Below, piece after piece: positions 33,718-55,576 of a stretch of 64,000 bases of DNA. The translations under genes were made by a program, and so were the position numbers. The notes under the pieces are model-generated. The model made no database searches. It had not been told where the DNA came from and saw only the letters and a list, made by a program, of their open reading frames with translations. The first letter of the stretch is position 1. Each line of letters opens with the position of its first letter. Source of the stretch: a candidate division FCPU426 bacterium (GTDB lineage: Bacteria > Oederibacteriota > Muellerivitia > Muellerivitales > Muellerivitaceae); assembly GCA_963796105.1 (NCBI GenBank), contig CAWCKJ010000007.1, positions 134,662 through 198,661 of the forward strand, given 5' to 3'.

Positions 33718-35076
33718 TCAAGACCCCGGGGTTTTGGAGGGTGGATGAGCGGGGAAATCACTTGCCTGGGGGTTGACCTGCCCCCCGTTCAACAGTCTCT
33801 TTCCGCCTGCGGCCGCCAAAAAGTCCGTTTGGGCGTCATTCATTTCCGTCTCGATACGGGCGATATTCCTGACAGACTCCTCCAAATCGGTCACGGTCCC
33901 GAGGAATTTCAGGTAACGGTCCTTGGCCAGTGAAAAATTCCGGGTCGCGGCCACGTACTGGGGTCCCAGGGACAAGACTTGTTCGCGGGCGTATTCGATG
34001 GCCTCGTCAAGTTGGGCGTTTAAATCCTCCACCTGGAGCTGGGTCGCCGAAAGGCGGTCGCTTTTCTCCCGCAGGGAAGCCTGCGCCCTCTTCTCCTCAG
34101 AGGCGATCCGGAATCCCTCGAAGACCGGGATGGATATCCCGGCCCAACCAGAATAATCGCTCTGCTTAACCAACCGCGAGCTGTCCATTAATCCGACGCT
34201 TCCGCTGACGTAAAGACGGGGAAGGCGTTCCGCGGATGCGCTGGAGGAGAGAGCCTTGGCGGCCAGGACCTCGTCCTGCGCGAAGTCCAGGTAGGGGTTT
34301 CGTTCGGGCTCCTGGATGGCGGCGATCGTGCTTTCATCCAGATCGGCCGGCTCCGGCAGGCGGATGGAGGCGCTTTCCATTCCCGCCGCCAGCGCCAGCC
34401 GCCTCAGGGTGGCCTGGTACCTCTGGTCGTAGCCGTCCTCGGTCAACTGCGCCTGGTCCATCTGGTCCCGAAGCAGGAGCAGTTGGACTTCGTTATACCT
34501 TCCCTGCCTCACGAAGTTTCCCACGATCTCCTGGATAGGCTTGATCCTATCTACGACCCCTTGCCAAACCTGTTTCAACCCTTGGAAGCGGCAGGCGTCC
34601 AGGTAAAGCCCCAAAACCTTCTGGTCGACCTGCGACCTGGTGATGCGTGTTTGTTCCTGGGCGGATTTTTCCCCATATCGCGAGGCGGTCAGGGAATAAC
34701 CCCGGCTCGCGTCCAGGAGAGTCAAGGTGCCCACCGCGTCCCCGGCCAACCCGGAGCGGTAGGGGGAATTCACAAGGCCCCCAAAGCCCTCCGGGCTGGG
34801 CGAACCGGAGCCAGGAAACCCCGTGCTGTCCACGCCAGCCAAGTCCAGGTGGGGCAATGCGTAGGCGGTGAGGATTCCCGTATTGGCCCGGGCCTGGGTT
34901 TCCCTTTCAAATTGGGCCTGGAGGTCCGGGCTCACCTTCTCAGCCAGCAACAACGCTTGGCCAAGGGTTAACACTGGCGGTAGCGCCTTATCCTGCGCCC
35001 GGGAATAACCCGTGAGCCATAAAAAGGCCAGGGAAAAAAGTCCCAATGTCTTTAAGCGGGTGGGCTCATGGTTCAT
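33718..35076 (-). CDS. TolC-family outer membrane efflux protein
   Basis: Signal peptide, LTLGQALLLA...SPDL, ISIPVFEG OEP-type repeats; overlaps the RND stop. Confidence 0.85.
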   Translation of the reverse strand: MNHEPTRLKTLGLFSLAFLWLTGYSRAQDKALPPVLTLGQALLLAEKVSPDLQAQFERETQARANTGILTAYALPHLDLAGVDSTGFPGSGSPSPEGFGGLVNSPYRSGLAGDAVGTLTLLDASRGYSLTASRYGEKSAQEQTRITRSQVDQKVLGLYLDACRFQGLKQVWQGVVDRIKPIQEIVGNFVRQGRYNEVQLLLLRDQMDQAQLTEDGYDQRYQATLRRLALAAGMESASIRLPEPADLDESTIAAIQEPERNPYLDFAQDEVLAAKALSSSASAERLPRLYVSGSVGLMDSSRLVKQSDYSGWAGISIPVFEGFRIASEEKRAQASLREKSDRLSATQLQVEDLNAQLDEAIEYAREQVLSLGPQYVAATRNFSLAKDRYLKFLGTVTDLEESVRNIARIETEMNDAQTDFLAAAGGKRLLNGGQVNPQASDFPAHPPSKTPGS

Positions 35077-38000
35077 GGTTGTTCCCTTCGTAAAACGCGC
35101 TGGAAGGATCAATGGGGTCCAATGAAGCCGTATGGGTTGGCTTGTCATGGTGCACGATCGCGTAAATGATCGGCATGATCAGGAGAGTCGTTACCGTTGA
35201 TCCCAGGAGGCCCCCGATCACCGCCCGAGCCAGGGGCGCGGTTTGCTGGCCGCTTTCACTCAAGCCCAGGGCCATGGGGACCATGCCCACGATCATGGCG
35301 ATGGCTGTCATCAGGACCGGCCTCAACCGGCTCTGGGCCCCGTGGACCGCCGACTCCCAGGAATGCCTGCCGGAGCGACGCGTCAGGTCCGCGAAGGTCA
35401 CCAGCAGGATGGAATTGGCGACCGACACGCCCACCGCCATGATGGTTCCCATGAAGGATTCGATGTTCAGGGTGGAACCGCTTATATAAAGAACGAGCAG
35501 GGCCCCCGACAGGACCGCAGGGACGTTGGAGATGACGATGGAGGCGATGGGAAACGACTCAAAGCTCCCGGCTAGGAGCAGAAGGATGACCACGATGGCG
35601 AACGCCAGTCCCGCGAGCAGGCCATCCGTCATGTCGGTCAGGGTCTTGATCTGCCCCCGAACCCACATTTGGATCCCCTTGGGTATTTTTTCGCGGATGG
35701 GCTTTAGAATATCGTCCAATTTCCCCGCAGCGTGGCCCAAATCTATCCCCTGCAGGTTGGCTTGAACCGAGGCCATTCGGACGCTGTTATAACGGTCGTA
35801 TTCGGCCACTTCCGTTCCCTTCCAAACCCGGGCAAAGTTTCCCAAGGGAAGAGAGCCCGTATTGACAGGGATGGGTACCTTTTTCAGGTCCTCCACGGAC
35901 TTGACGTCGCTGGGTGGCACTTCCACCTGTACCTGGTAATTCACACCATCCTTGAGGTCCTCCCAGAAGTTGGGTAGGGTGAACCGGCTGGAGGAAGTCA
36001 CCGGCACCAGGGCCCTTCCGATATCCGTGACATGAACACCCCGCAAACCCGCCTTTTTCCGGTCCACATCCACTTCAAGGGTGGGATAGTCCCAGGGCTG
36101 TCCATATTGCAGGTCCCGGATTCCAGGGAGGGCGGATGCCAGGGCTTTCTTGATCTGGTCCGCCACCTCCCGGTCCTTATCCAAATCGTGTCCGTTGACG
36201 TCCACCTCGATCTGGGTGGGCGCCCCGGCGCTCATGACCTTGTCGATGAGGCCGCTGGGTTCGAATGTCACGCGGATGTCCGGCAGTTCCTTTTGGAAAA
36301 CTGTCCTGAGTTTTTCCTTCAGTTGGGCGGTCGAGATGCCCGAGTCCTTCTTGAAGGCCACTTGTAAAACCGCCTCCTGGGGCCCCGCGGTCCACAGGAG
36401 AATGGTGTTGATGGCGTATTGGGTAGGCTGGGTGCCAACGTAACCCAGGGTGGTATCGACATTTTCAGGGCCGGCCGTCCGCTTGATGAGGTAGATGACT
36501 TGGAGCAGGTCCTTCTCGGTTTTATCAATATAGGTTCCCACCGGGGCGCGGATTCTCATCTGAAGTTCATGGCTCTCCACTTTGGGGAAGATTTCCCTTC
36601 CAATATGGCTACCCAGGCCGCCGATGAGAGCCAGAGCCCCTAGGGCGTAGCCAGCCTGGAATAGGACCCGGTGCCGGTAGATGTATTCCAAAAGGGCGCC
36701 ATGCGCCCTCTTCATCTTGTCCAGGAACGTCTCTCCTGTTTTGGCATGGCCCTGTTCCTCCCTTAAAAGCCAGGTCGCCAGGATGGGCACCAGGGTCATG
36801 GAAAAGAAAAAAGCCCAGACGATGGAAAAACCGACCGAAAGGGTCAGCGGCACGAAGAGGGCCTTGGACATACCGCCCATGAAAAAGGCCGGGATGAATA
36901 CCGCCAGGATGCAAAGCATGGTCAGGAAGGCGGGATTGAATATCTCGCTGGTACCGTTGATGGCGGCAGTGGCCAGCTTTTCCCCCTTCGACAGGCGCAC
37001 GTGGATGTTCTCGATGGTGATGGTACTCTCATCTACAAGGATGCCGATGGCCAAGGCCAGGCCCCCCAGGGTCATAATGTTGATGGATTGGCCCGCGATG
37101 TTCAGGCTGACGATGGCGCCCATCAATGCCAGGGGGATGTTGATGATGACGATCAGGGCGCTGCGCCAGTCGCCCAGGAAAAGGAAGACCATCAGGCCCG
37201 TCAGGAGGGCCCCCATGATTCCCTCGAAGGAAAGGGACTTGATGGAATCCTTCACGACCCCCGATTGGTCGAACTCGTAACCCACCTTAATGTCGTCGGG
37301 CAGGACGTCCTGGAACAAGCGCATGTTGTCCTTGATCTCCTGGACGACCGTGAGGGTGGAGGAATCTGATCTTTTAATGACCGGCAGATAGACGGTCCTC
37401 CGGCCGTTCAAGAGGGCGTAACCCGTTGCGATATCGGAGGAGTCCCTCACCACGCCGATATCCCTCACGAAAACCGTGGGATAGGTCCCCAGCCTGAGGG
37501 GCACGTTCAAAAGGTCGTCGATCTTCCTGACGATGGAATTCATGGGCACGGTGGGGTACTGGTCGCCGATTCGGATCTTTCCGGAGGGCTCGATTTGGTT
37601 GGCCTTGGCCAGGGCTTGAACAACGTCCTCGGGGGAAAGGCTGTATTCCCGCAGTTTATTCGGATCCACCTCGATGACGATAGCGCGCGGGCTTGAGCCG
37701 AAATGGTCCGAAACCAACACGCCCGGCAAAGTGGCTACCAGGGGTCTAACGTAGACGTGGACGTAGTCCTCGATGTCCTCCAGGCTGCGAGTCGGGCTGG
37801 AAAAGACCAGGTCCCCGACGGGCAGGTTGCCGCTATCGAACCGCAGGATGAGAGGCGGCAGGGTCCCGGGGGGCATGGTTTTGAGGGCCCTCGTGGAACG
37901 GGACACTACTTCCCCCATTGCCGAGGACATGTCGGTGTCCGGGTGGAACTGGAGCTTCAACATTGTCACTTCGCCGATGCTCTTGGACTCGATGTGCTCG

Positions 38001-38281
38001 ATCCCATTCACGTAGGAAAACTGCTTCTCGAAGTTGTAAGCGAAGAAGCTTTCCATCTGGGCCGGGTCCATGCCCCCGTAGGGGGAAACCACGAAGATGC
38101 TGGGTGTTCCCAGGCTGGGGAAGATGTCGAACTTCATGTGGAAAAGGCTGTTCACCGCCCCCAGGGCGACAGCCACAGCCAAGACGACCACGGTAATGGG
38201 GCGGCGCATGGCCAGTTGGACCATCCAGACGCGGAAGATCCTCTGTGGATTCTCGTGGTTTAAATCGGGCTCAGGGTTCAT
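35066..38281 (-). CDS. RND efflux permease (AcrB/CusA superfamily)
   Basis: RRPITV, LAIGILVDE, NSILLV, RLRPVLMT, PLARAVIGGL; 1071 aa. Confidence 0.93.
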   Translation of the reverse strand: MNPEPDLNHENPQRIFRVWMVQLAMRRPITVVVLAVAVALGAVNSLFHMKFDIFPSLGTPSIFVVSPYGGMDPAQMESFFAYNFEKQFSYVNGIEHIESKSIGEVTMLKLQFHPDTDMSSAMGEVVSRSTRALKTMPPGTLPPLILRFDSGNLPVGDLVFSSPTRSLEDIEDYVHVYVRPLVATLPGVLVSDHFGSSPRAIVIEVDPNKLREYSLSPEDVVQALAKANQIEPSGKIRIGDQYPTVPMNSIVRKIDDLLNVPLRLGTYPTVFVRDIGVVRDSSDIATGYALLNGRRTVYLPVIKRSDSSTLTVVQEIKDNMRLFQDVLPDDIKVGYEFDQSGVVKDSIKSLSFEGIMGALLTGLMVFLFLGDWRSALIVIINIPLALMGAIVSLNIAGQSINIMTLGGLALAIGILVDESTITIENIHVRLSKGEKLATAAINGTSEIFNPAFLTMLCILAVFIPAFFMGGMSKALFVPLTLSVGFSIVWAFFFSMTLVPILATWLLREEQGHAKTGETFLDKMKRAHGALLEYIYRHRVLFQAGYALGALALIGGLGSHIGREIFPKVESHELQMRIRAPVGTYIDKTEKDLLQVIYLIKRTAGPENVDTTLGYVGTQPTQYAINTILLWTAGPQEAVLQVAFKKDSGISTAQLKEKLRTVFQKELPDIRVTFEPSGLIDKVMSAGAPTQIEVDVNGHDLDKDREVADQIKKALASALPGIRDLQYGQPWDYPTLEVDVDRKKAGLRGVHVTDIGRALVPVTSSSRFTLPNFWEDLKDGVNYQVQVEVPPSDVKSVEDLKKVPIPVNTGSLPLGNFARVWKGTEVAEYDRYNSVRMASVQANLQGIDLGHAAGKLDDILKPIREKIPKGIQMWVRGQIKTLTDMTDGLLAGLAFAIVVILLLLAGSFESFPIASIVISNVPAVLSGALLVLYISGSTLNIESFMGTIMAVGVSVANSILLVTFADLTRRSGRHSWESAVHGAQSRLRPVLMTAIAMIVGMVPMALGLSESGQQTAPLARAVIGGLLGSTVTTLLIMPIIYAIVHHDKPTHTASLDPIDPSSAFYEGNNHEP

Positions 38282-38421: not shown

Positions 38422-39174
38422 TTACTCGATTTTGCCCAGGTCGCTCTGGAGCTTTTGGCTTTGTTTTTCCGCCTGGGCCAATTTTTGCTTTTCAGGCGCG
38501 TTCTTATTGGACTGGTAATCGGCCCATGCGTTTTCGGGGTTGTTGAAGTAACCGGCGGAAACATAAACGAGGAAATTCCCCGACTCATAGTCGGGGTTGT
38601 AGGTCGGTTGGGTATCCCCCAGTTCGTTGTTGTTGTCGTAATGGCTGGAGGCCGTGACCAAAAAGACCAGGGTTCCCGGGCTTTTCTCATACTGGGCGTA
38701 TTCGTAATCCATCATCTTCCAGCCGAATCCCGTTTGCTTCCATTGGGCATCGTACGACTTGAACCCTTTCCTCGGGTATTTCGCGTCCAAGGCCTTTTTT
38801 ACGGCATCCAGGTCGGAATGATGGATGGGAACAGCTGCCAGGCAATACTTTTTCCCGTAAAAAACGAAGTGGGTTTCGTCCCCGTTGATTTTTTCCACGT
38901 TGATTTTGACGGGTCTTGCCGCGTCGCTCGAATCAACCTCGTGGAAATTCATCAGCAGGTAATCCAATCCGGTTCCCATCAACCGGTCAAGCGAACGCTC
39001 GATGGTGGAATTCTTCGCGGACCTGAAATCGCCAAGCAAAGTCCCCCAAGCGGTATCGTGATAACCCTCAATGGCAACTGCTTTCGTCTCGGTTTGGGCC
39101 GAAGCGGCCGGTTTCCATCCCAACACTAAAAATCCCATGATCAATAAGCAAACAGCAAATTGTTTCGTTTTCAT
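38422..39174 (-). CDS. Secreted hypothetical protein
   Basis: Signal peptide MKTKQFAVCLLIMGFLVLGWKPAASA; RBS AGGAGG. Confidence 0.8.
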   Translation of the reverse strand: MKTKQFAVCLLIMGFLVLGWKPAASAQTETKAVAIEGYHDTAWGTLLGDFRSAKNSTIERSLDRLMGTGLDYLLMNFHEVDSSDAARPVKINVEKINGDETHFVFYGKKYCLAAVPIHHSDLDAVKKALDAKYPRKGFKSYDAQWKQTGFGWKMMDYEYAQYEKSPGTLVFLVTASSHYDNNNELGDTQPTYNPDYESGNFLVYVSAGYFNNPENAWADYQSNKNAPEKQKLAQAEKQSQKLQSDLGKIE

Positions 39175-39202: not shown

Positions 39203-39655
39203 TTAACTGGCTTTTACTAGGTTCTGGTTCGAATTCTGTTCCATCATTAACAATCTTTGGTACTTTTGGACTTTCCCAGGATCCTTTAAGGTTTCCTGGA
39301 TTTTCCGGCGAAGCGTCCAGGCGGTGTTATAGGACGTGAGTTCCAGGCGGTGCTGTAACTCCTGGGTTGAGATGCGGCCATTCCGGTTGATCATCCAATA
39401 GATGGCGCGAAACCAGGTAGAAAGGGATACCCTGGAATTCTCAAAGATCGTTCCAGGACGAAGGCGGATCTGCCTTAGGCAATCACAGCAGGTCCTTACC
39501 TCGGGGCGGGAATGGTGCCTGTAATATTCCTTTTCCCCGCAATTGGGACAGGTGAATGGCCCGTCATTCAATTTCAAAGCCCAGGCCCATTCCCTGGCCC
39601 TCTCCTCGCTTAAGTAATGGATTTTCGCGTTGTTTTTCAATTGTTCTCGTGTCAT
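39203..39655 (-). CDS. IS1595-transposase N-terminal Zn-ribbon/HTH-like protein lacking the DDE domain
   Basis: CPNCG...CCDC...GTIFENSRVSLSTWFRAIY...TAW...KI, then stop; ATG 39655 with RBS CAGGAG. Confidence 0.75.
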   Translation of the reverse strand: MTREQLKNNAKIHYLSEERAREWAWALKLNDGPFTCPNCGEKEYYRHHSRPEVRTCCDCLRQIRLRPGTIFENSRVSLSTWFRAIYWMINRNGRISTQELQHRLELTSYNTAWTLRRKIQETLKDPGKVQKYQRLLMMEQNSNQNLVKAS

Positions 39656-39660
39656 CGGTG

Positions 39661-39794
39661 ATCTCCTGATTTTCGGCCGTGTGTCCGCCGGTTGATTTGA
39701 GCAAACGGAGTTTTCCCTTGGGGCTAGGGGCCTGATGAGTCCCACAGGACGCACAGGTTTCCCGAAACCAATGGGGAAAATTAATTCAGGAGAT
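39661..39794 (-). promoter_or_regulatory. Anti-SD/SD sequestering structure after LRI leader 1
   Basis: mRNA AUCUCCUGA 4 nt after the stop is a perfect complement of UCAGGAGAU, the RBS of the 39655 gene. Confidence 0.7.
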
Positions 39795-39798
39795 TTTT

Positions 39799-40328: not shown

Positions 40329-41300
40329 TTATTCTTCCTTCCCGAATTTTCCCTTCCCTGATATCCATTCCAAATATTGTTTCCGCGAGGACTGGTTTCG
40401 CCCGGTGAGCCATCTGCCGCAATATTCAAAAACCGCCGGATCTTCTTTCGTGACAGCCAATTCCTTCCGATATTGTTCAGTTTTCGCCAGGATGCCTAGT
40501 CGCCGGCACAAGTCATAACAATTTGCTAAGGCGCAAAAATCGGTTGGGTGTCGGGAAAGGAAATCCTCAAAAAACGCCAATTCCTTTGAGGACTCAGCAT
40601 CGGTCGAATGGAGGGGATCATAGAACTGGACCCGGTCCAAATAACCATCCTTGGCCCTGACAAACCCACTGCCGTTCCATTTGAAGGGCCTCCCATAATA
40701 AATTGGAAAATCCTGGTTGATCGTGGCCCTTTGGTAATCCACCAGAATAGGCCTGCCGGATGAAACAAAAACCCGGGGACCCATCGCGAAACCCTTAATG
40801 GACGCTTTCTTTTCAAAATGACCGTTGTTATGGAATTGGTAAATATCCGCGAATTGGGTCGTGGCCGAAGAGGAATAAACCACCAACTGGTCCACCCCCT
40901 GGTTAAATAGGTCCGCCCCTTCGAAACCCTTGTATTTTTTTCCTTCGGCCATTTCCACCTGGATGAGTTTCCAATCGTCTTTAACTTTGTGGAAATAAGC
41001 GAACCCCGATCCGGCGTCCTTGACCATTTGGCGCCCGTTGTTGTAAACAACCCCGGTGTCGATGTAGCCCGCGAGGCCGATGATCACGTCGCTTCTTGGG
41101 GCTCTTGTGAAATCATGGTAGGCATCGCCGGATATATTCCAAAAAACACCCTTTTTCCGCGGGTATTCCTGGTCGATCCGAGCGTTGATTTCCCCCAGGC
41201 GGATCTGGCCGTAAGCGATCAGGATGGAGGCTGTTTCATCCACCGCGAAAACGGAAAACACCGGAAAAAGAATTAAAACCAGCGCAAGAATTTTTATAAT
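40329..41300 (-). CDS. Secreted hypothetical protein, paralog of 47015-47986; probable ATT start
   Basis: High similarity to the 47015 protein along its length; the signal peptide is restored only from ATT 41300 after GGAGGG. Confidence 0.8.
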   Translation of the reverse strand: MIKILALVLILFPVFSVFAVDETASILIAYGQIRLGEINARIDQEYPRKKGVFWNISGDAYHDFTRAPRSDVIIGLAGYIDTGVVYNNGRQMVKDAGSGFAYFHKVKDDWKLIQVEMAEGKKYKGFEGADLFNQGVDQLVVYSSSATTQFADIYQFHNNGHFEKKASIKGFAMGPRVFVSSGRPILVDYQRATINQDFPIYYGRPFKWNGSGFVRAKDGYLDRVQFYDPLHSTDAESSKELAFFEDFLSRHPTDFCALANCYDLCRRLGILAKTEQYRKELAVTKEDPAVFEYCGRWLTGRNQSSRKQYLEWISGKGKFGKEE

Positions 41301-41321: not shown

Positions 41322-41489
41322 TTAACGCGTCATTACGAAATCAATCATGATGATGAGGAATAAAACCAGCCCGCAAAAGACCAGGACGCCGACTTTTAAT
41401 TGGCCCTCGGCCATAGCTCCCGCTAAAAATAGGATGCTTCCAACAATCAATAAACGTCTTTTCCAGTTTGTTTGGGTATCGTCGATCAT
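41322..41489 (-). CDS. Small 2-TM membrane protein, 55 aa
   Basis: Below the track cutoff: MIDDTQTNWKRRLLIVGSILFLAGAMAEGQLKVGVLVFCGLVLFLIIMIDFVMTR*; RBS GAGGG. Confidence 0.6.
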   Translation of the reverse strand: MIDDTQTNWKRRLLIVGSILFLAGAMAEGQLKVGVLVFCGLVLFLIIMIDFVMTR

Positions 41490-41593: not shown

Positions 41594-41782
41594 TTACTCA
41601 TTAACGGAGTTGGTCGGTTTTTGTTTGCCCTGTCCCGCTGGGAATTCCATCTTGATTTCCCTATCCAACAAGAAACAGTCGGCACAATCGTTAATGTGCT
41701 CCTCAAAATCCGCCTTTTGCCGTGGGGACAATTGATCCTTCAGGTGCTTTCGGAACAACCGCCGAATGTCCTTGCATTCCAT
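41594..41782 (-). CDS. Stand-alone zf-HC2/ZAS zinc-finger protein
   Basis: MECKDIRR...L...FEEHINDCADC (C...HxxxCxxC). Confidence 0.75.
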   Translation of the reverse strand: MECKDIRRLFRKHLKDQLSPRQKADFEEHINDCADCFLLDREIKMEFPAGQGKQKPTNSVNE

Positions 41783-41908: not shown

Positions 41909-42106
41909 TTACTTGGCAGATGGCGTAGCGCTTGAAGTTCCGGCTTTTTTCGCCTTCTTACCTTTTTTCACCTTTTTATGGGCCTTCTTATGTTTCATGG
42001 CCTTGGCTGCGTGTGTCGAAGCGGGTGTTGGTTCCTGCGCGAAAGCAGGTACTGAAACCGCCGCCAAGAACATCACGGTTGCCAATGATGCGATCAACTT
42101 TTTCAT
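41909..42106 (-). CDS. Secreted Lys/His-rich small protein (Asr-like composition)
   Basis: Signal peptide ending PAFA, then QEPTPASTHAAKAMKHKKAHKKVKKGKKAKK; RBS AAGGAGG. Confidence 0.8.
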   Translation of the reverse strand: MKKLIASLATVMFLAAVSVPAFAQEPTPASTHAAKAMKHKKAHKKVKKGKKAKKAGTSSATPSAK

Positions 42107-42262: not shown

Positions 42263-42273
42263 GGAAATATTGG

Positions 42274-42816
42274 TTATTCATCTAGACTTTTTTTCAGTTG
42301 TTCTAAATGCTCCGCAAGGCGATCAAAAGTTCCGTCAAATTCGCCCATCATGTCCCCCATACCAGCCTCGAATGCCTTTCGTTCTTCAGGGTTATCGTGT
42401 ATGGGGCCAGCCTTTAAAGCCATTCCTGTTTTCCCCCCGAAATCCAGGAACGTCACCCGGTTCAGGATTTCCAGGGGCCAATTGGGATGAAGGGGGTGCC
42501 GGCTAACCCGGCCTTTCTCATCCAAAAAAGAACTGATGAAAATGATCTTTTCGGGAGCGAGGACTTCCTTGAACAGGTGTTTTCCCCACCAAGTATCAAA
42601 TCGGTTTGCGCGTCTCAGTCCGTAAATAAAGGAACCGCCCGGCCGCGGGTTCAAGCTGGCGTTCATCAAGGTGGACCCGATGGGGCCCCACCATTTATCC
42701 AGTTGTTCCAGTTCAGTCCATGCCCTGAATACCGCTAGCCGGGGCGCCGCAAAAACGCGCCTGATGATGAATTCACGGTCCCGGACTATCAAATTTCCCG
42801 TGTTTATTCCAATCAT
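42274..42816 (-). CDS. SRPBCC/AHSA1-family protein
   Basis: REFIIRRVFAAPRLAVFRAWT...WWGP...PEKIIF...WPLE...TFDRLAEHL. Confidence 0.9.
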   Translation of the reverse strand: MIGINTGNLIVRDREFIIRRVFAAPRLAVFRAWTELEQLDKWWGPIGSTLMNASLNPRPGGSFIYGLRRANRFDTWWGKHLFKEVLAPEKIIFISSFLDEKGRVSRHPLHPNWPLEILNRVTFLDFGGKTGMALKAGPIHDNPEERKAFEAGMGDMMGEFDGTFDRLAEHLEQLKKSLDE

Positions 42817-42819
42817 GTT

Positions 42820-43137
42820 TCACCTCGTTCCAATGGCAGTGGGTCCTGGGCGAACCCCTGGACCGTTGATATTTTCCAGGAGACCTTCCTCCAGGTATTT
42901 CCGGATGGCCTCCAAAGCCTCAAGGGCGTCCGCGCCGTCGATATAAACGGCCAGTTCGGTACCTTCACGGGCCTCTAATGTCAAAAGGCCCAACAAGCTC
43001 CTGCCATCGACCCGCGCGTCCCCCTTTTGGACCTTGATCCTGCAATGAAACTTCTGGATGACCTTGATTAAATTTGCGGCGTCTCGCAAATGAAGCCCTA
43101 GGGAACGCTGGACTTTAACTATTTTGAATAATTTCAT
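42820..43137 (-). CDS. HPr-family phosphocarrier-like protein
   Basis: GLHLRDAA (His15 equivalent), VDGRSLLGLLTL (Ser46 equivalent), GTEL...DGADA. Confidence 0.88.
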   Translation of the reverse strand: MKLFKIVKVQRSLGLHLRDAANLIKVIQKFHCRIKVQKGDARVDGRSLLGLLTLEAREGTELAVYIDGADALEALEAIRKYLEEGLLENINGPGVRPGPTAIGTR

Positions 43138-43142
43138 GGAAA

Positions 43143-43233
43143 CTCCTTTCGTGATTTGATTTCGGGCGTGGATGGGACGCGCGAATACCCGCCGGGTTGA
43201 AACAGGACCCAGCCGGGAACTACACGGAAGAAA
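43143..43233 (-). promoter_or_regulatory. Anti-SD/SD multibranch structure after LRI leader 2
   Basis: UUUCUUCCGUG pairs with CACGAAAGGAG (HPr RBS; one mismatch, G-U pairs), enclosing two hairpins. Confidence 0.7.
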
Positions 43234-43236
43234 TTT

Positions 43237-43563
43237 TCAGATTCGGAGGATGAGGAAACTCTGCGGGGATGAATTGCCGGGGGCAAATACCAGGCTTATA
43301 CGGCTGTCCGAGAACGAAGGGGCCTTCGCCTTGGTGATACATGGAACCAAAACCACGGAATCCGGGGCCTCCCGCGCGATATGACGCAGGGTAGTATGGG
43401 GAACAGAAATTTCCTCATTCTGGTGGGAAAAAGAACCGATTTCGTCCTGCAAATTTTGGTAAGAAGAGCTGTTGTGGACGCAAACCACGACTGGCCGCAG
43501 GATGAAAGCTGGCAGTAAAACCATTATGAATAACCGGATAAGGATGTTCATTTTATTAACCAT
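43237..43563 (-). CDS. LRI-ending leader peptide 2
   Basis: 108 aa; LRPVVVCVHN, HTTLRHIAREAPD, ends PQSFLILRI*. Confidence 0.8.
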   Translation of the reverse strand: MVNKMNILIRLFIMVLLPAFILRPVVVCVHNSSSYQNLQDEIGSFSHQNEEISVPHTTLRHIAREAPDSVVLVPCITKAKAPSFSDSRISLVFAPGNSSPQSFLILRI

Positions 43564-45397: not shown

Positions 45398-45928
45398 TCA
45401 CTCCTGAAGATGCTCCAACCGGCCTGCCAGTTGGTCGAAAGTCCCCTCCAAGTCCTTCTTGACTTCCCCCAACTCCGCCTCGAAGGTCTTGCGTTCATCC
45501 TCCGTTGCATGCAGGGGCTCGACCCGGTAGGTTACGGTTGTTTTCCCGTCGCGTTCCTGGAATGTCAGCGTATTCAGGATTTCCAGGGGCCAGGTTGGAA
45601 TGAGGGGATGGCGGGTGATTCCCCCGTTTTCATCCGAGAAAAAACTGACGAACAGAATCCTCTCGGGCGCGGTGATTTCCCTATAAACAGCCCGGCACCA
45701 CCAAGTAAGGGTCCGAAGGGACGGATCCTGGCCGGGGGATGGGTCTCCCCCCGTCTTCGGGGCCGGCTGGGCCCCTTTCGCCGGAAAACCTTGCGGTCCC
45801 CACCAATAGGCCAAGTGTTCCATCCCGGTCCATGTTTTGAAAACAACTTCCCGCGGGTAGTCGTAAGAGCGCCGGATGACGAGTTCCCGCTTCTGGTTGA
45901 GCGTCATAGAGATATTTTTATTCGCCAT
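45398..45928 (-). CDS. SRPBCC/AHSA1-family protein
   Basis: RELVIRRSYDYPREVVFKTWT...WWGPQG...HPLIPTWPLEILN; ATG 45928 overlaps the HPr end. Confidence 0.85.
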   Translation of the reverse strand: MANKNISMTLNQKRELVIRRSYDYPREVVFKTWTGMEHLAYWWGPQGFPAKGAQPAPKTGGDPSPGQDPSLRTLTWWCRAVYREITAPERILFVSFFSDENGGITRHPLIPTWPLEILNTLTFQERDGKTTVTYRVEPLHATEDERKTFEAELGEVKKDLEGTFDQLAGRLEHLQE

Positions 45929-46250
45929 GGGCCACCTCGGACATAGGGACGGCTGGTCCGGTAAAAATTCCCAGCCCGGAGAAATTTTCACCCGGTTCTT
46001 CTTCCAGGAATGCCCGGACTGCCATGGAAGCCTCGGCTGCGTCCTTGCCGTCGAAATAAAGCGCCAGTTCGCTTCCGGTCTGGGCCCCAAGCGTCAAAAG
46101 ATCCAACAGGCTCCGGGCATCGACCCTGATTTCGCCCTTTTGGATCTTGATCCGGCATTGGAACTCCCGGGTGATTTTGACCAGATGGGCTGCCGTTCGT
46201 AAATGAAGCCCTAATGTGCGGCGGATAGTGATTTTTTCAAATAATTTCAT
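45918..46250 (-). CDS. HPr-family phosphocarrier-like protein
   Basis: GLHLRTAA, VDARSLLDLLTLGA, GSEL...DGKDA. Confidence 0.88.
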   Translation of the reverse strand: MKLFEKITIRRTLGLHLRTAAHLVKITREFQCRIKIQKGEIRVDARSLLDLLTLGAQTGSELALYFDGKDAAEASMAVRAFLEEEPGENFSGLGIFTGPAVPMSEVAHGE

Positions 46251-46389: not shown

Positions 46390-46394
46390 GCGGA

Positions 46395-46484
46395 CTCCTT
46401 TCAGGATTTGGTTTCGCGCGCGGATGGGCGCGCGGATAACCGCCGGGCTGAAACAAGGCCCGGCTGGGGCTTACAGGAAAGGAA
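46395..46484 (-). promoter_or_regulatory. Anti-SD/SD multibranch structure after LRI leader 3
   Basis: UUCCUUUC pairs with GAAAGGAG; inner hairpins GCCGGGC/GCCCGGC and GCGCGC/GCGCGC. Confidence 0.7.
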
Positions 46485-46487
46485 TTT

Positions 46488-46814
46488 TCAGATTCTGAGG
46501 ACGAGGAAACTTTGCGGAATTGAATTTCCGGACGCGAAATTAAGGTTCAAACAGCTTTCCGAAAGCGAAGGAACCTTCATTTTGGAGAAGCTAGGAACCA
46601 AAACCGTCAAATCCGGCGCCTCGCGCGCGATGTGACGAATGGTTGTATGGGGGGCCGAAAGTTCTTGAGAATGCTGGGAATAAACCCTGACTTCATCCTG
46701 TAGATAAGGTCGGGACGCGCCGTTTTGAACGCTCACCACAACAGGACGCAATACGATGGCCGTTAATAAGGCCAGCACGGATAAGCGTAAGAGCCTGTTC
46801 ATTTTTTTATGCAT
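46488..46814 (-). CDS. LRI-ending leader peptide 3
   Basis: 108 aa paralog; HTTIRHIAREAPD, ends PQSFLVLRI*. Confidence 0.8.
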   Translation of the reverse strand: MHKKMNRLLRLSVLALLTAIVLRPVVVSVQNGASRPYLQDEVRVYSQHSQELSAPHTTIRHIAREAPDLTVLVPSFSKMKVPSLSESCLNLNFASGNSIPQSFLVLRI

Positions 46815-47014: not shown

Positions 47015-47986
47015 TTATTCCCCTTTCCCCCCTGCTCTCTTTCCCATAATCCATTCCAGGTACTGTTGGTGGAAGGATTGGTTTCTCCCATCAAGCCATT
47101 GGCCGCAATATTCGCAAAGAAGGGGGTCATCCTTCATGGATACCAATTGCTTGCGGTATTGGTTCATTTTTTCGCCGAGATCCAGCCGGCGGCTCAGGTC
47201 GTAACAATTGGCGAGGGAACAAAAATCCTTCGGGTGGCCGGCTAAGTAATCCTCGAAAAACTCAAGGTCCTTCGAGGACTCGTCGTTGGTGGAATGGAGG
47301 GGATCGTAGGATTGGACCCGGTCCAGGAACACATCCTTTGCCCCAAGGAATTCATGGCCATTCCACCGGAACGGACGCCCGTAATAAACCGGGAAATCCT
47401 GGTTGACCGTTGCCCTTTGGAAATCCACCAGGATAGGCTTGCCGAATTCCTCGGCAACCCTGGGGCCCTTCCCGAAACCGAGGAGGGATGCCTTTTTTTT
47501 GAAGCGGCCGTTGTTGTCCATGCCGTAAATGTCCGCGACTTGGGTCGTGCCGGAGGAGGAATAAACCACAAGCTGGTCCCTTCCCTGGCCGGTCAAGTCC
47601 GCGCCCTCAAAACCCTTGTATTTTTTCCCATCCGCCATCTCCACTTGGATGAGCTTCCAAGCTTCCCTGTCCTTGTGGTAATAAGCGAATCCCGACCCCG
47701 CGTCCTTGACCAATTGGCGCCCGTTGTTGTAAGTCAAGCCGATGTCCAGGTAGCCGGCCAGGCCGATGATCACGTCGGTCTTCGGGATCTTCGTGAAATC
47801 ATGGTAGGCATCCCCGGAGATGTTCCAAAAAACACCCTTTTTACCGGAGTAATCCTTGTTGATACGGTCGTTGATTTCCCCCAAGCGGATCTGCCCGAAA
47901 GCAATGAGGTCGCAGGCGGTATCGTCCACCGCGTAAGCGGAAAGGGCAGGTAAAAACACGATTATCAACGCGAATATTTTTCCCAT
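47015..47986 (-). CDS. Secreted hypothetical protein, 323 aa, paralog of 40329-41300
   Basis: Signal peptide MGKIFALIIVFLPALSAYA; DLTGQGRDQLVV (FG-GAP-like) and a TPR-like C-terminus. Confidence 0.8.
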   Translation of the reverse strand: MGKIFALIIVFLPALSAYAVDDTACDLIAFGQIRLGEINDRINKDYSGKKGVFWNISGDAYHDFTKIPKTDVIIGLAGYLDIGLTYNNGRQLVKDAGSGFAYYHKDREAWKLIQVEMADGKKYKGFEGADLTGQGRDQLVVYSSSGTTQVADIYGMDNNGRFKKKASLLGFGKGPRVAEEFGKPILVDFQRATVNQDFPVYYGRPFRWNGHEFLGAKDVFLDRVQSYDPLHSTNDESSKDLEFFEDYLAGHPKDFCSLANCYDLSRRLDLGEKMNQYRKQLVSMKDDPLLCEYCGQWLDGRNQSFHQQYLEWIMGKRAGGKGE

Positions 47987-48126: not shown

Positions 48127-49272
48127 CTAAGCCCCCTTCAGGGACTCCCCCTCCGAGTTAAAGTTATCCACCGAGCCGTCCCGCAGGGTCAATTGGATTT
48201 TCAAGTTCCAACCGGAACCGCTGAACCGAACTCCCTTTACTCCCGTTTCCAGGAAAACGGGTTTGAACGATTGCGAATCCTTGTCGTATAAAAATGCGTC
48301 CCCAGCCTCACCCACCAGCTTCACGAAGCGGCTGGAACCGCCGCTCTGGAAGTCAATCCCGCTGTCCTGGGATGCCCGGCCTGGGTCCTGATGATTGAAC
48401 CGGTCCGGCCCGGTCCCGCCGTTGGACGGGGGCTCCTGGTTACTGTTATCCCCCTGCGCCTGGGCGTTACCGTTGTCCGGGACATAATCGCCGTTTTCAT
48501 AGGCATATACCGTCTCGTTCACGGGATTCCGCCAGCACCAATTGCCCGAGTCCCAATAACACCAGTTGCCATAATTGGGGTCCTGCCACCACCAATTGCC
48601 GCCGTAATATTGGGCCCAGAAGAAACCCGCGCCGCAATCCCATCCCCACCAGTTCCCCCCCCATGCGTCGTAATAATTGCAATAGTTGAAGCCGTTCCAA
48701 TTGTGCCAGTAGTAATGGTTGCGCAGGTATCCCCCATTGAAGCCGCCGATCCTGCCGATCGCCTTGTTCCCGGCAAGCGCGGCCATCCGGTTTTTCACCA
48801 ATGGGGAGCCGGCCATCCTTGGTGAAACCCTCGCGGCCGTGAGAGAGCGCCCCAAGGGTCCCCTGGAGGGGACCGTTGGCCCCTGGCGGTTAAAAGCCGC
48901 GCGTGATTGGGTATTTCCGGTCCCGTTCGCCCTGTTGAATCCATTGGAACGGTTGAAATGGTTCCGTGCGCCTCCGTTCCATCCAGAACCCCTGTTCCAG
49001 GGGCTGCCGCGGAAGGACCGGTTGAAATGGCCGCCGTTTCGAAATCCGCGATAATTCGAAAAGTTTCTCCCTCCCCCGCCGTTCCACCGGCTGGTACCGC
49101 CCCAACCGCCCCTGGAACCCGATCCCCAGCCGCCGGACCTTCCACCTCCGCTCCAGCTTCCACCGCCGCTGGAACCTCCACCGCGCCCGGAACCACCGCC
49201 GCCCCTGGCGTCCAAAGCCGTTGTTCCGGTAAAGATTAGGATGACAGCCATTGCCAACATTGTCTTTTTCAT
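48127..49272 (-). CDS. Secreted Gly/Arg-rich protein with a Trp/Tyr-rich domain
   Basis: Signal peptide, RGGGGSGRGG low-complexity stretch, YYWHNWNGFNYCNYYDAWGGNWWGW domain. Confidence 0.8.
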   Translation of the reverse strand: MKKTMLAMAVILIFTGTTALDARGGGGSGRGGGSSGGGSWSGGGRSGGWGSGSRGGWGGTSRWNGGGGRNFSNYRGFRNGGHFNRSFRGSPWNRGSGWNGGARNHFNRSNGFNRANGTGNTQSRAAFNRQGPTVPSRGPLGRSLTAARVSPRMAGSPLVKNRMAALAGNKAIGRIGGFNGGYLRNHYYWHNWNGFNYCNYYDAWGGNWWGWDCGAGFFWAQYYGGNWWWQDPNYGNWCYWDSGNWCWRNPVNETVYAYENGDYVPDNGNAQAQGDNSNQEPPSNGGTGPDRFNHQDPGRASQDSGIDFQSGGSSRFVKLVGEAGDAFLYDKDSQSFKPVFLETGVKGVRFSGSGWNLKIQLTLRDGSVDNFNSEGESLKGA

Positions 49273-49415: not shown

Positions 49416-49955
49416 TCATCGCTGGACACCGGTTTTGCCCGCCAAATATATGGCAAGCTGGTCGAAAACCCCCTCGAAAACCCTCGTCATCAAAACAGCC
49501 ATTCTTTCGAAGGTCGTCCTCTCTTCCTCCGTGGCAAAAATGGGTTCGGCCTTGAACGTGATAAATGTTTTTCCGCCTACCTCAACGAATGTCAGGGTAT
49601 TCAGGATTTCCAGGGGCCAAGTGTCAACGCGGGGATGCCTTGTGATGCCGCCTACCTCGTCCGAATAAGAGCCGGTGAAAACTATCATTTGCGGTTCGGA
49701 AACCTCCCGGAAAATGAATTTTCCCCACCAGGTCCCGGGGCTGTCGGGGGAGACCAAACCGAAATGAAAGGATCCACCCGTCTTGAATTGCATCCGCGCC
49801 TCCCGGAGGATAAACCCCCCGGGCACCCACCAAACCACCGGGTATTCAAGATTCGCCCAGGCCCTAAACACCGCTTCCCGCGGTGCGTCAAAAAGCCGTG
49901 AAAGGGCGAAGCCCCTGTTCAAATTCGCGCTGTTGTATTTGCCCTTAATTCCCAT
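49416..49955 (-). CDS. SRPBCC/AHSA1-family protein
   Basis: LSRLFDAPREAVFRAW...WW...TWWGKFIFREV...TWPLEILN; RBS AAGGAGG. Confidence 0.88.
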   Translation of the reverse strand: MGIKGKYNSANLNRGFALSRLFDAPREAVFRAWANLEYPVVWWVPGGFILREARMQFKTGGSFHFGLVSPDSPGTWWGKFIFREVSEPQMIVFTGSYSDEVGGITRHPRVDTWPLEILNTLTFVEVGGKTFITFKAEPIFATEEERTTFERMAVLMTRVFEGVFDQLAIYLAGKTGVQR

Positions 49956-49975: not shown

Positions 49976-50185
49976 TCACCCGAATACGCGTTTATCAGGT
50001 TCGAGCGCGGGGTTATTCCGCGGCTGTTCATGGTAATCACCCATAAAAATCCCCCGCCCTTCCCAATTCAAAACGAAACAATCGGCGCAATCACTTATGT
50101 GTTCCCTGATCCTCGCCTCTTGCTGGGGGGTTATTTTCCCCTCAAGGGAACTTCGGTATAAAAGCTGGATATCCGTACATTCCAT
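49976..50185 (-). CDS. Stand-alone zf-HC2/ZAS zinc-finger protein (paralog of 41594)
   Basis: MECTDIQ...IREHISDCADC. Confidence 0.72.
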   Translation of the reverse strand: MECTDIQLLYRSSLEGKITPQQEARIREHISDCADCFVLNWEGRGIFMGDYHEQPRNNPALEPDKRVFG

Positions 50186-50314
50186 CTGGACCACCTCACC
50201 TTCATTTTCCACTCCGGGGGTTGAGGAACTCATTTCCAAACCCGCCCGATAATCGGCGGAAAACCGATTCCCCGGCGGGTTCCCCGGTATTCCCCCGGGG
50301 CCCGGAAAACATCT

Positions 50315-50512
50315 TTACTTGGCCGTGGGCGTCGAATTGGACGTTTCGGCCTTTTTCGCCTTTTTCCCCTTTTTCACTTTTTTATGCCCCTTCTTATGTT
50401 TCATAGCCTTGGCTGCGTGCGTTGGTGCCGGCGTGGGCGCCTGGGCGAATGCGGGTCCCGATACCACCGCCAAGAACATCACGGTTGCCATGGATGCGAT
50501 CATCTTTCTCAT
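50315..50512 (-). CDS. Secreted Lys/His-rich small protein (Asr-like), paralog of 41909
   Basis: MRKMIASMATVMFLAVVSGPAFAQAPTPAPTHAAKAMKHKKGHKKVKKGKKAKK; same 65-aa length. Confidence 0.8.
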   Translation of the reverse strand: MRKMIASMATVMFLAVVSGPAFAQAPTPAPTHAAKAMKHKKGHKKVKKGKKAKKAETSNSTPTAK

Positions 50513-50595
50513 AACTTCCCCCTTTAAATTTAAAATGAACGGCCTGGAGGCCCCCACTTACGGTGGTCGGGCTTATCCCTGTCCCGGAAGGCCGT

Positions 50596-50823: not shown

Positions 50824-50832
50824 AACGAGGTT

Positions 50833-51264
50833 TTAAAAATAATCCACCGGCAAAGTCGCCCTCGGCTTGGTATGGGGCGCATACTTTGGGGTAGCCATGG
50901 CCATTTTCCTCGCGTAATTCTTTTCCCCAACGGAAGCCCCTTTTTCGACCTTTATGTCCTGACGGGGGTAAATCAGATCCGGGTCCTTGATTTCATCCCG
51001 GTTGGCCTTGAAGAGGAGGGGCCACTCCAGCGAATCGCCGTAAATCCCCGGTTTCCCGGCGATCCCCCATAAACAATCGTGATTTTGGACGAAGTAATGA
51101 TCCAGGGGCTTTAATTCCGCCTTACGCATCGGGAATTCCTCGTTCGACATGGGTTTTTTCGGGATTTCCGTGCTCTCAATTCTCTTCGCGCTTCCACAAC
51201 CAATAAGCGCCAAAGCCAAAAACACGAATCCGCCTAATTGGGCGATTTTTTTGGAATTCGGCAT
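50833..51264 (-). CDS. LysM-domain lipoprotein
   Basis: Lipobox LIGC; YFVQNHDCLWGIA...IYGD...WPLLFKANRDEIKDPDLIYP. Confidence 0.85.
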   Translation of the reverse strand: MPNSKKIAQLGGFVFLALALIGCGSAKRIESTEIPKKPMSNEEFPMRKAELKPLDHYFVQNHDCLWGIAGKPGIYGDSLEWPLLFKANRDEIKDPDLIYPRQDIKVEKGASVGEKNYARKMAMATPKYAPHTKPRATLPVDYF

Positions 51265-51398
51265 AACAGTCCTCCTTTTTTGGTAGAACTCATGGAAAAA
51301 CCCGCGGGGAGTTGATTCCGCACCCGATGGACAATCTCGACTAGGATGCTGATAAATGTTGTTCAGGTTTTTTTAGTGATTTTTTCAAGGCGGAATTC

Positions 51399-51487
51399 TC
51401 CTTTCGCGGTTTATTTTCGTGCGAGTGGGTGGCGCACGAATACCCGCCGGGCCGAAACAAGGTCCGGCCGGGGACTGCTCGAAAGGA
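51399..51487 (-). promoter_or_regulatory. Anti-SD/SD multibranch structure after LRI leader 4
   Basis: UCCUUUCG pairs with CGAAAGGA; inner hairpin UUCGUGCG/CGCACGAA. Confidence 0.7.
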
Positions 51488-51491
51488 TTTT

Positions 51492-54347: not shown

Positions 54348-54443
54348 TTTCCCCCGCGAATTTACTCCCGGCTGCCGTTAGCCGCCGGTATTCCCACATC
54401 CATTTTCCAATGGAATAAATCATTCAAACTTGCGCGGAGGAAA
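54348..54443 (+). promoter_or_regulatory. Anti-SD/SD structure after LRI leader 5
   Basis: UUUCCCCCGCG directly after the stop pairs 10/11 with CGCGGAGGAAA (RBS of ATG 54448). Confidence 0.7.
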
Positions 54444-54447
54444 TCAA

Positions 54448-54741
54448 ATGAATCAAAAAATCGAAGTCACCAATACCTCGGAACTCTACCTGAAATTCCT
54501 AAGCGATATTCAGACGGTAGCGTGCCGCTTTGAATCCCGTATTACCATCCAAAAAGGGGAGGTTACGGTGAACGCCAAAAATTTCGAGGAAATTTTGAAA
54601 TTAATCGGAACCAAGGGTACCAAGCTTGAAATCACCGTCGAGGGTAAGGACGCCAAAAAAGCCCTGGCCGCCATATGCCGTTTGGCGGAGCAAAATTATC
54701 TCAGGTTAAATCACGAGCTTTTATTCCAAAACAATAACTAA
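54448..54741 (+). CDS. Degenerate HPr-fold protein
   Basis: HPr pattern (FESRITIQKG...VNAK...GTKLEITVEGKDA), but His15 is Tyr (ELYLK) and Ser46 is Asn (NAKNF). Confidence 0.8.
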   Translation: MNQKIEVTNTSELYLKFLSDIQTVACRFESRITIQKGEVTVNAKNFEEILKLIGTKGTKLEITVEGKDAKKALAAICRLAEQNYLRLNHELLFQNNN

Positions 54742-54814
54742 CAGGCGGAAACGACTTTGGGCGGGGTACTGAATTAAATTCGTTTTTTAAATACGCATTT
54801 TTGGGGGGTGGACG

Positions 54815-55576
54815 ATGAAAAAGAGTTCATGCTTTGCATTCACGCTTGTTTTAGGGCTCCTAACCTCCTTGGGTTGCGGGAGCAAGGATGAGGATGAATT
54901 AGGCGGTGGAAACGTACCAGCGGTCACTGCCCAAATGGGGACGGCTGTCATTGGCGGAAAAGTGGTTTTGAACGGCAAGCCCCCGGCAGGGGTACCCATC
55001 AATTTCGCCGCGGACCCCGTTTGCATGTCCCAACACTCGGGTAAAGTTTTGGACGAAACAGTCCAGGTGGATAAAAAAAACGACTTGGTCAACGTGCTGG
55101 TTTATGTTAAGGACGGCGCGGCTGAGTATCCGGCACCTTCCGGGGCGGTTACCCTCACCCAAAAGGGTTGCCAATATAGCCCCCACGTTTTCGGCATCCA
55201 GGTCAACCAACCGTTGGAGATCGTCAATGATGATCCTACCCTCCACAACGTTCACGCGATGCCGGTCACAAACGACGCCTTCAACGTTGGCCAGCCCAGC
55301 CGGGGAATGAAAACAGAGAAGAAATTCGCCAAACCCGAGGTCCCGGTAAAGTTTAAATGCGACGTGCACAGCTGGATGCACTGCGTCGCCGGGGTTTTCA
55401 CCCATCCTTTCTACGCGGTGACGGGTGCGGACGGGACATTTAAGATCACCGGCCTTCCGGCCGGCAGTTACACTTTGGCGGCGTACCAGGAAAAATACGG
55501 TGAATCCGCCCCCTCAAAGGTGGATTTGAAAGACGGGGAAACGAAATCATTGGATTTCGCGTTTAATGCCCAATAA
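54815..55576 (+). CDS. Lipoprotein with cupredoxin-like and carboxypeptidase-regulatory-like domains
   Basis: Lipobox SLGC; QKGCQYSPHV, LHNVH, KCDVHSWM, GTFKITGLPAGSYTL. Confidence 0.75.
   Translation: MKKSSCFAFTLVLGLLTSLGCGSKDEDELGGGNVPAVTAQMGTAVIGGKVVLNGKPPAGVPINFAADPVCMSQHSGKVLDETVQVDKKNDLVNVLVYVKDGAAEYPAPSGAVTLTQKGCQYSPHVFGIQVNQPLEIVNDDPTLHNVHAMPVTNDAFNVGQPSRGMKTEKKFAKPEVPVKFKCDVHSWMHCVAGVFTHPFYAVTGADGTFKITGLPAGSYTLAAYQEKYGESAPSKVDLKDGETKSLDFAFNAQ

Follow-up and report, generated by a model that had tools for sequence, protein, structure and literature searches.

The 64,000-nucleotide window analysed here, which spans positions 134,662 to 198,661 of contig CAWCKJ010000007.1 (assembly GCA_963796105.1) from a candidate division FCPU426 bacterium, contains between its positions 33,718 and 55,576 five strings of envelope-related and small regulatory genes, each headed by a leader gene whose product ends in Leu-Arg-Ile directly before the stop codon (LRI-stop). 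Such a leader and the spacer behind it probably form an export-monitoring arrest-peptide cassette, which would open the ribosome-binding site (RBS) of the next gene and so turn the operon on. Two lines of evidence carry this reading: an LRI end common to leaders that are otherwise unrelated, and a predicted helix that hides the next Shine–Dalgarno (SD) sequence immediately after the leader stop. The LRI leader switch looks like an undescribed variant of the arrest-peptide switch.

Leader Genes and the LRI-Stop Motif

A preliminary description of this DNA, made from its letters alone, had placed an LRI leader before every gene string, and all five leaders, 107–119 amino acids (aa) long, do end in LRI-stop. 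The whole genome has 213 small open reading frames (ORFs) whose hydrophobic stretch lies 92–115 residues ahead of the stop; seven of them end in LRI, where about 0.06 would be expected. These are the five window leaders, an identical second leader 2 on contig C12 and, on contig C4 (C4:410097; G000:C4:403767-410453, L095), a Cys/His-rich leader that carries SPP and lies before genes for TolC, a CusB-like, a CusA-like and a heavy-metal-binding protein. The C4 leader links the window leaders to the CutF-like copper sensors. By hydropathy, leader N-termini are basic and then hydrophobic (Kyte–Doolittle 11-mer values of 2.5–3.0 in the window leaders), and the distance from the start of the hydrophobic stretch to LRI-stop is 94–113 residues, where the filter allowed about 81–140. 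The window leaders have no match in Pfam, NCBIfam or Rfam; an Rfam scan of 30–58 kb gave no match, and neither the five window leaders (E 0.05) nor three further leaders (E 0.001) matched PF11162 (DUF2946).

Three main families can be distinguished. In family A, LRI is invariant in all 13 leaders aligned at 24–59% identity, and a profile of these leaders found 67 matches in a library of 1.84 billion representatives, 64 of which end in LRI; the others are one LKI, one FSP and one false match of 1127 aa. Family B, Cys-rich and unrelated to A, stands before TolC in 10 loci, with cusCBA-type genes downstream. Its LRI is kept where PP varies: of 43 database matches, 41 end in LRI and 24 carry PP among their final 15 residues. 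When 61 leaders are compared after six residues have been trimmed from the C-terminus, they sort into mutually non-aligning groups of 30, 17, 10 and 2 plus two singletons, so that the LRI end is common to four groups that cannot be aligned without it. The group of 17 (family C) mostly precedes HPr-like genes. No window leader has PP or RAPP within its last 15 residues; in families A, C and B the counts are 6 of 30, 3 of 17 and 8 of 10, respectively. Window leaders and families A and C have a mean of 1.8–2.6 Cys and no shared metal motif; only family B, with C4:410097, has one.

Across 52 leaders, LRI is encoded by six Leu, six Arg and two Ile codons, and this synonymous variation argues that selection acts on the peptide. 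A constraint on LRI at the DNA level was considered and rejected, as the synonymous codons vary freely. The stops of the same leaders are TGA (34), TAA (17) and TAG (1), whereas a crude count puts TAG at about 16% in long ORFs (naive p 0.001, overstated by kinship).

A Predicted RNA Switch after the Leader Stop

The preliminary description had located control mainly at translation; that control acts at this level is supported by computation, which predicts an anti-SD helix right after the stop of every window leader (−10.9 to −16.0 kcal/mol). The anti-SD arm begins 2–5 bases past the stop, and the pairing bases are those at +2 to +14. In an earlier folding set of 30 stop-to-start spacers, two of which had been found via a complementarity pattern, most spacers form an outer helix joining the bases just past the stop to the next SD.

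A larger set, assembled from 43 sequences through protein or HPr-neighbourhood searches and free of any complementarity filter, comprised 52 leaders. The arm/RBS duplex reaches −8 kcal/mol or lower in 39 of these 52 leaders and in 17.6% of 358 control gene pairs with similar spacing from this genome. Duplexes with the leader's own partner average −10.6 kcal/mol versus −7.7 kcal/mol with swapped partners (none of 10,000 permutations was as low), and 43 of the 52 leaders beat their own row mean in this partner-swap test. Masking 4, 6, 9 and 12 nucleotides (nt) after the stop lowers the median cost of opening the RBS from 10.0 kcal/mol to 8.4, 6.8, 5.7 and 5.4 kcal/mol, respectively. Among 24 aligned rows, no register scores higher than the named one; pairing is seen in 79% of cells, a level reached in 0 of 500 shuffles, and 16 cells are compensatory (reached in 4 of 500).

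Proposed Mechanism and Alternatives

The mechanism starts from the leader as a conserved coding gene, with its basic and then hydrophobic N-terminus about 94–113 residues before LRI-stop, and from the pairing with the downstream SD, which is predicted and has covariation behind it. Beyond this we infer stalling, an RF2 preference, release by force and a signal, as follows. LRI in the exit tunnel would slow peptide release at the stop. A ribosome with a stop codon in the A site would cover the region 2–5 bases past it, so that the footprint of the stalled ribosome would lie over the anti-SD arm. Because UAG is almost unused, RF2 is probably the factor whose release step would be slowed. Pulling on the exported N-terminus would free the stall, and slow export or a ligand outside would prolong it. 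Copper is the likely signal of family B; for families A and C it is likely export or the state of the envelope, a choice favoured by their cargo of LysM, OmpA, Skp and efflux genes. Copies of the cassette have become joined to varied envelope and small regulatory genes, which would create a translational regulon of several operons. Cytoplasmic cargo (HPr paralogs, ZAS fingers, SRPBCC proteins) probably relays the signal further. Regarding the envelope, acid and metal stress named in the preliminary description, envelope stress is consistent with the LysM, OmpA, Skp and RND/TolC cargo, an acid signal would draw on a CLC gene near some modules and on an unverified likeness to Asr, and metal sensing is consistent only with the Cys-rich leader family outside the window.

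Several points weigh against this mechanism. None of the leaders examined is followed by a sec or yidC gene; their targets are LysM, OmpA, HPr-like, RND/TolC and CusCBA-type genes. The signal of family A, which has no metal motif, is a guess, and the status of the leader N-termini as signal peptides is judged from hydropathy alone. Pairing is weak within the 16 nt tested in 13 of the 52 leaders: seven before HPr-like genes, two of group D, one other and three without a good start within 150 nt. Two of five covariation measures on the 24 rows, the number of covarying pairs and that of pair types, are not above shuffles, and RNAalifold predicts zero pairs on a plain MAFFT alignment, likely due to arms that are out of register between rows. 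The genomes compared are kin, so the statistics are overstated. The profiles include LRI and are biased to matches that bear it; the LRI ends of the non-alignable groups are independent of this bias.

The alternative that survives best, with a minor but real chance of being correct, is plain translational coupling. Here any ribosome that terminates at the leader stop would briefly open the helix, and LRI would not be a stall motif but would tag the C-terminus of the finished, exported protein, as a protease or PDZ ligand or a sorting signal. Hydrophobic C-termini can indeed serve as protease or PDZ ligands, and coupling explains the position of the helix equally well; what it leaves unexplained is the recurrence of the same three residues at the stop in four unrelated groups, the spacing of 94–113 residues and the near-exclusion of TAG. 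An arrest-defective mutant kept basal induction (PMC10987492) and CutF was degraded fast after export (PMC9973294), both of which would suit coupling, whereas the CutF-like metal motif of family B needs a stall for its readout.

It is improbable, in our judgement, that the leader does stall and that its output is nevertheless mainly transcriptional, through Rho-dependent or intrinsic termination blocked in the 100-nt spacer as in CruR or TnaC, with SD pairing secondary. CruR works through Rho (PMC9426467), the seven weakly pairing leaders before HPr-like genes could act transcriptionally, and leaders 3 and 4 have only short ORFs under their control; since the useful genes there carry an SD of their own, mRNA survival may matter. 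Against this, the arm covaries with its own SD. The spacers are also predicted to be highly structured, which makes a poor Rho loading site, and terminator-like sites occur at chance level (37 observed vs 32.4 by chance), as do promoters (12 vs 13.6); no claim on transcription is made from these scans.

Duplication, Selection, and Shuffling

The proposed expansion by duplication and shuffling is borne out by the paralogs, by a repeated block on C12 and by gene combinations that recur in relatives, as seen in the neighbourhood comparison that the preliminary description had called for. The duplicated intergenic elements that it listed are spacer DNA copied together with the genes. Nei–Gojobori ratios of nonsynonymous to synonymous divergence (dN/dS) were calculated for 23 paralog and ortholog pairs. 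Seventeen pairs give 0.08–0.40 and one more has dN = 0 with a small dS; in four, dS is saturated with the proportion of nonsynonymous differences (pN) well below that of synonymous ones (pS), and one pair is identical. Leader pairs range from 0.18 to 0.40 (leader 4 against leaders 2 and 3, 0.24–0.40), and the values are 0.08 for the two Asr-like genes and 0.17 for the two 323-aa genes. These ratios lie far below the value near 1 that had been named as the mark of neutral decay.

A tree tentatively places leaders 2–4 together, apart from 21 relatives (branch support 86/89, not starred). A block of about 1.1 kb with leader 2, HPr1 and the spacer between them recurs almost unchanged on C12 within a more diverged repeat, which suggests recent gene conversion. 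The C12 locus (C12:16082-18043, L096) holds second copies of leader 2, HPr1, SRPBCC, Asr-like and ZAS genes, followed by a CLC-like gene.

The family-A profile (13 leaders) has a match in 21 of 31 family genomes, and none in G001, which belongs to the same genus and is 93% complete. The commonest order in relatives is leader, one or two uncharacterised genes, LysM lipoprotein, Lys/His-rich peptide and OmpA-family lipoprotein, to which some add Skp/OmpH, CLC, TPR or ExbBD/TonB-like genes. The leader-4 module recurs in G016 as leader, X, Y, LysM, Asr-like, ZAS, SRPBCC, Gly/Trp-rich, 81-aa ORF and 323-aa gene. In at least nine genomes (G002, G006, G013, G016, G018, G021, G042, G043, G045), islands combine one to five LRI leaders with these parts in a different order, which makes the parts list and its shuffling features of the lineage. 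A reading of the region as accumulated duplications in decay, within a genome rich in insertion sequences (IS) and with the shared leader end a relic of one ancestor, is very improbable: an IS1595 fragment inside module 1, the shrunken first targets of leaders 4 and 3 (15 and 50 codons), a 323-aa copy a without ATG and the blank in G001 would suit it, but it is contradicted by the low dN/dS, by the spread of the leaders in the family, by an IS-derived gene kept behind the same leader in three genomes and by an LRI end common to non-homologous leaders.

Range beyond the Family

A strict pattern run over GTDB genomes returned 43 matches, of which six are family members, two are leader-like elsewhere and the rest look like chance. 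The two outside leaders have Cys/His-containing bodies, LRI-stop and strong helices. One, in a Vicinamibacteria genome of the Acidobacteria group, precedes a multicopper oxidase and has one near-identical copy among 70 relatives; the other, in a Pseudomonadota genome, precedes an unnamed membrane protein within a cluster that we take to be copper-related, and 60 relatives gave only weak matches (E 0.002–0.05). In metagenomes, 80 of more than 120 matches were examined: eight have an open frame of at least 85 codons and six of these are leader-like, three resembling family A and three Cys-rich. Judged with such strict patterns, whose matches are chosen for complementarity and so provide no test of it, the range is cross-phylum but patchy.

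A loose LRI-stop pattern was also run over 99 genomes of the phylum; it had many matches and brought family B to light, and was not used for the range as its reversed-pattern control matched often too.

Taken more broadly, LRI-stop could quite possibly represent a proline-independent class of termination arrest that sits on unrelated exported sensors, namely monitors of export or envelope and binders of copper, has moved between operons and crosses phyla, with an envelope regulon run by stalled ribosomes and not by a sigma factor. This wider reading is put forward as tentative.

Genes behind the Leaders

The five gene strings were recovered from the ORF list and the sequence in the order first described (Table 1). 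A Pfam scan of 32 ORFs of the window returned the expected part totals (three PTS-HPr, four AHSA1/SRPBCC and two zf-HC2 domains) along with GGDEF, ACR_tran and OEP; the two Asr-like and two 323-aa genes were likewise counted, and no sigma-factor or two-component family was matched. For leaders 3 and 4, said to be followed by HPr and LysM, the order is right, with the qualification that ORFs of 50 and 15 codons come first, ahead of HPr2 and LysM.

Table 1. Features of the leader-headed gene strings, by position in the window.
Feature	Position	Strand	Basis or remark
TolC-family outer-membrane channel	33718..35076	−	PF02321 (OEP)
RND permease	35066..38281	−	PF00873 (ACR_tran)
250-aa secreted protein	38422..39174	−	homologs in related islands
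IS1595-derived Zn-ribbon/helix-turn-helix protein without catalytic domain	39203..39655	−	likely domesticated
Leader 1 predicted RNA switch	39656..39798	−	9-bp arm against SD of Zn-ribbon gene; duplex −14.3 kcal/mol, best of 30 possible partners
Leader 1, 115 aa, end HPVILRI-TAA	39799..40146	−	distant family-A branch tied to RND-TolC
323-aa secreted protein, copy a	40329..41300	−	full frame from ATT behind GGAGG
55-aa hydrophobic ORF	41322..41489	−	no relative found in own genome
Stand-alone ZAS finger, copy 1	41594..41782	−	PF13490
Small secreted Lys/His-rich protein ('Asr-like'), copy 1	41909..42106	−	paralog of copy 2
SRPBCC/AHSA1 protein	42274..42816	−	PF08327
HPr paralog 1 (HPr1), His15 and Ser46 positions kept	42820..43137	−	PF00381; alignment
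Leader 2 predicted RNA switch	43138..43236	−	SD of HPr1 directly sequestered; duplex −11.3 kcal/mol; RBS opening 9.1 to 4.4 kcal/mol with arm masked
Leader 2, family A, 108 aa, end QSFLILRI-TGA	43237..43563	−	identical copy on contig C12
Membrane GGDEF protein, intact GGDEF motif	43883..44728	−	PF00990
SRPBCC/AHSA1 protein	44830..45300	−	PF08327
SRPBCC/AHSA1 protein	45398..45928	−	PF08327
HPr paralog 2 (HPr2), His15 and Ser46 positions kept	45918..46250	−	PF00381; alignment
Leader 3 predicted RNA switch	46390..46487	−	SD of 50-codon GTG ORF (46237-46389, overlaps HPr2 start) sequestered; duplex −10.9 kcal/mol
Leader 3, family A, 108 aa, end QSFLVLRI-TGA	46488..46814	−	
323-aa secreted protein, copy b	47015..47986	−	AF2 pLDDT 92
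Secreted Gly/Trp-rich protein	48127..49272	−	homologs in matching islands of relatives
SRPBCC/AHSA1 protein	49416..49955	−	PF08327
Stand-alone ZAS (zf-HC2) finger, copy 2	49976..50185	−	PF13490
Small secreted Lys/His-rich protein ('Asr-like'), copy 2	50315..50512	−	82% identity to copy 1
LysM lipoprotein, core gene of ancestral family-A operon	50833..51264	−	NCBIfam PRK11198; behind family-A leader in many relatives
Leader 4 predicted RNA switch	51389..51491	−	anti-SD arm against SD of 15-codon TTG mini-ORF (51341-51388); duplex −11.9 kcal/mol
Leader 4, family A, 107 aa, end RNFLVLRI-TAA	51492..51815	−	
Leader 5, family C, 119 aa, end FSVSLRI-TAA	53988..54347	+	
Leader 5 predicted RNA switch	54348..54447	+	SD of HPr3 sequestered; duplex −16.0 kcal/mol; RBS opening 14.1 to 4.1 kcal/mol
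HPr-like protein (HPr3) without His15 and Ser46	54448..54741	+	PF00381
Lipoprotein, weak blue-copper-domain likeness and carboxypeptidase-regulatory-like domain	54815..55576	+	

Like HPr3, each of the 10 HPr-like proteins that were aligned from G007 and from modules of family-C type lacks His15 and Ser46; a canonical HPr copy stands on C11 beside enzyme I. His15-less HPr-like genes (54448-54741; L190:8988-9257) follow family-C leaders directly before a ZAS finger in G002, G004, G006, G013, G018 and G045, and likewise in G021 with a gap between the two; genomes that carry them have up to nine HPr matches. In the ZAS fingers HxxxCxxC is invariant (eight of eight) and weak matches to RsiW and DdvA were found; no gene for an extracytoplasmic-function sigma factor adjoins them among the scanned ORFs. 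The match of the LysM lipoprotein to PRK11198 (E 7.8e-9) is below the family cut-off.

Two of the first names had to be abandoned. The 'Asr-like' proteins match no Asr family in Pfam or NCBIfam, and their likeness is compositional. The 'Zn-ribbon' derives from an IS1595 transposase, of which it keeps the N-terminal part that binds DNA: the protein is 42% identical to about 60 IS copies in the genome, matches only profile positions 1–56 of 215 and stops before the catalytic (DDE) region of the full IS1595 copies. The gene stands behind the same leader and a matching anti-SD in G042 (intact) and G043 (frameshifted), with pN 0.31 versus pS 0.78, and is likely a domesticated regulator of the RND-TolC genes. 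The IS1595-family copies of this genome (G000), about 60 and near-identical, are of two types and spread over many contigs. The name 'cupredoxin-like' for the lipoprotein at 54815..55576 stands in part: there is a weak blue-copper-domain match (E 0.033), and the remainder is a presumed ligand pattern.

The 323-aa copies a and b are 69% identical. Copy a (40329) has no ATG, nor any ATG, GTG or TTG before its signal peptide, and its full frame runs from ATT at 41300. An alignment-based AF2 model (pLDDT 92; single-sequence model, pLDDT 36) has propeller-like beta sheets and a helical C-terminus. Foldseek gave no match to this model at E 0.001, VIA-align returned generic propellers only (best Z 10.3, rmsd 4.3, 175 aligned), and in an Atlas look-up FG-GAP-like leads at 0.90.

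Between and beside the RND permease and TolC genes (33718-38281; L194:2144-9915) there is no periplasmic adaptor gene, and the same holds for G002, G016 and G042; in G013 two RND genes stand in tandem. The Asr-like genes are flanked by duplicated GC-rich multi-hairpin spacers (42107-42273, 50513-50832, 41783-41908, 50186-50314; predicted −55 to −147 kcal/mol), which are possible mRNA stabilisers. A ferredoxin gene between leaders 4 and 5 (52233-52553), beside a CBM11-like secreted protein, has three close paralogs elsewhere in the genome (74–81% DNA identity), and positions 56056-63966 encode a 2636-aa secreted protein with triplicated domains and Thr/Pro linkers. At 30918-33505 of the window and at L204:195-6992, L191:7839-13238 and L021:12741-15236, the islands adjoin uptake genes plus a porin-like gene, the uptake genes being for phosphate in the window and in G006 and for sulfate in G002 and G016; these labels follow sequence likeness, with PstS-type by Pfam for the window only.

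Significance

Known export-coupled arrest peptides mostly use proline motifs, and each serves one operon. If the arrest-peptide reading of the LRI leaders is true, a proline-free motif of three residues at the stop in at least four unrelated leader groups would be a new termination block, and some CutF-like leaders, whose stall is now attributed to PP alone, would have an alternative stall site. It would also provide a simple rule (hydrophobic N-terminus, about 100 residues, LRI-stop, anti-SD) to search for unannotated small genes, and an example of a translational switch copied like a promoter to build a regulon.

Comparison with Known Switches

The layout of an exported N-terminus, a long spacer, a C-terminal motif and an SD-hiding helix is proven for SecM-type and CutF leaders (PMC10987492 and PMC9973294), and the former paper also documents peptides ending in NSP-, NAP- and DGMK-stop that arrest while the stop codon occupies the A site. 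LRI as an arrest motif was found neither in our literature searches nor in the arrest-peptide papers, in a coverage that largely excludes subscription journals; in the part of the PMC10987492 supplement available, VLRI and ILRI appear only at internal positions.

The monitoring substrates of PMC10987492 share with the LRI leaders a small unannotated upstream ORF (uORF), a long spacer (more than 30 residues from motif to signal, here 94–113) and an SD-hiding stem, here predicted; their hydrophobic export segment has a putative counterpart in the basic and then hydrophobic N-termini of the LRI leaders. They differ in that the motif here is LRI with no requirement for proline and no secA, secDF or yidC targets; LRI leaders come in up to seven cassettes per genome and precede envelope lipoproteins, efflux pumps and HPr-like genes.

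CruR/DUF2946 of Bordetella pertussis (PMC9426467) is likewise an exported-type uORF that heads an operon and regulates in cis; unlike the LRI leaders it has CXXC and RAPP, elongation arrest and Rho. TnaC and PepNL (PMC11890864) share stop-codon arrest by release-factor block, with an Ile near the C-terminus critical in PepNL, but are short cytoplasmic peptides with no export segment and no anti-SD helix after the stop.

Also close is CutF of Rhodobacter capsulatus, for which PMC9973294, PMC8456105 and bioRxiv 10.1101/2025.02.05.636593 describe an exported protein of about 118 aa, a stem over the SD and activation by the stall. Family B, with CxxC, CC, often PP and a place before TolC-CusB-CusA, fits this description and may be the known CutF-like group with an unremarked LRI end (PMC9973294 Fig. 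S6 logos, File S1). CutF itself ends in PEPEGPPPRL and stalls on prolines, whereas the window leaders are without a metal motif and families A and C mostly without PP. Although the window leaders have no sec target, RAPP/PP or metal motif, their architecture, so far as the genes themselves reveal it, is that of SecM and CutF.

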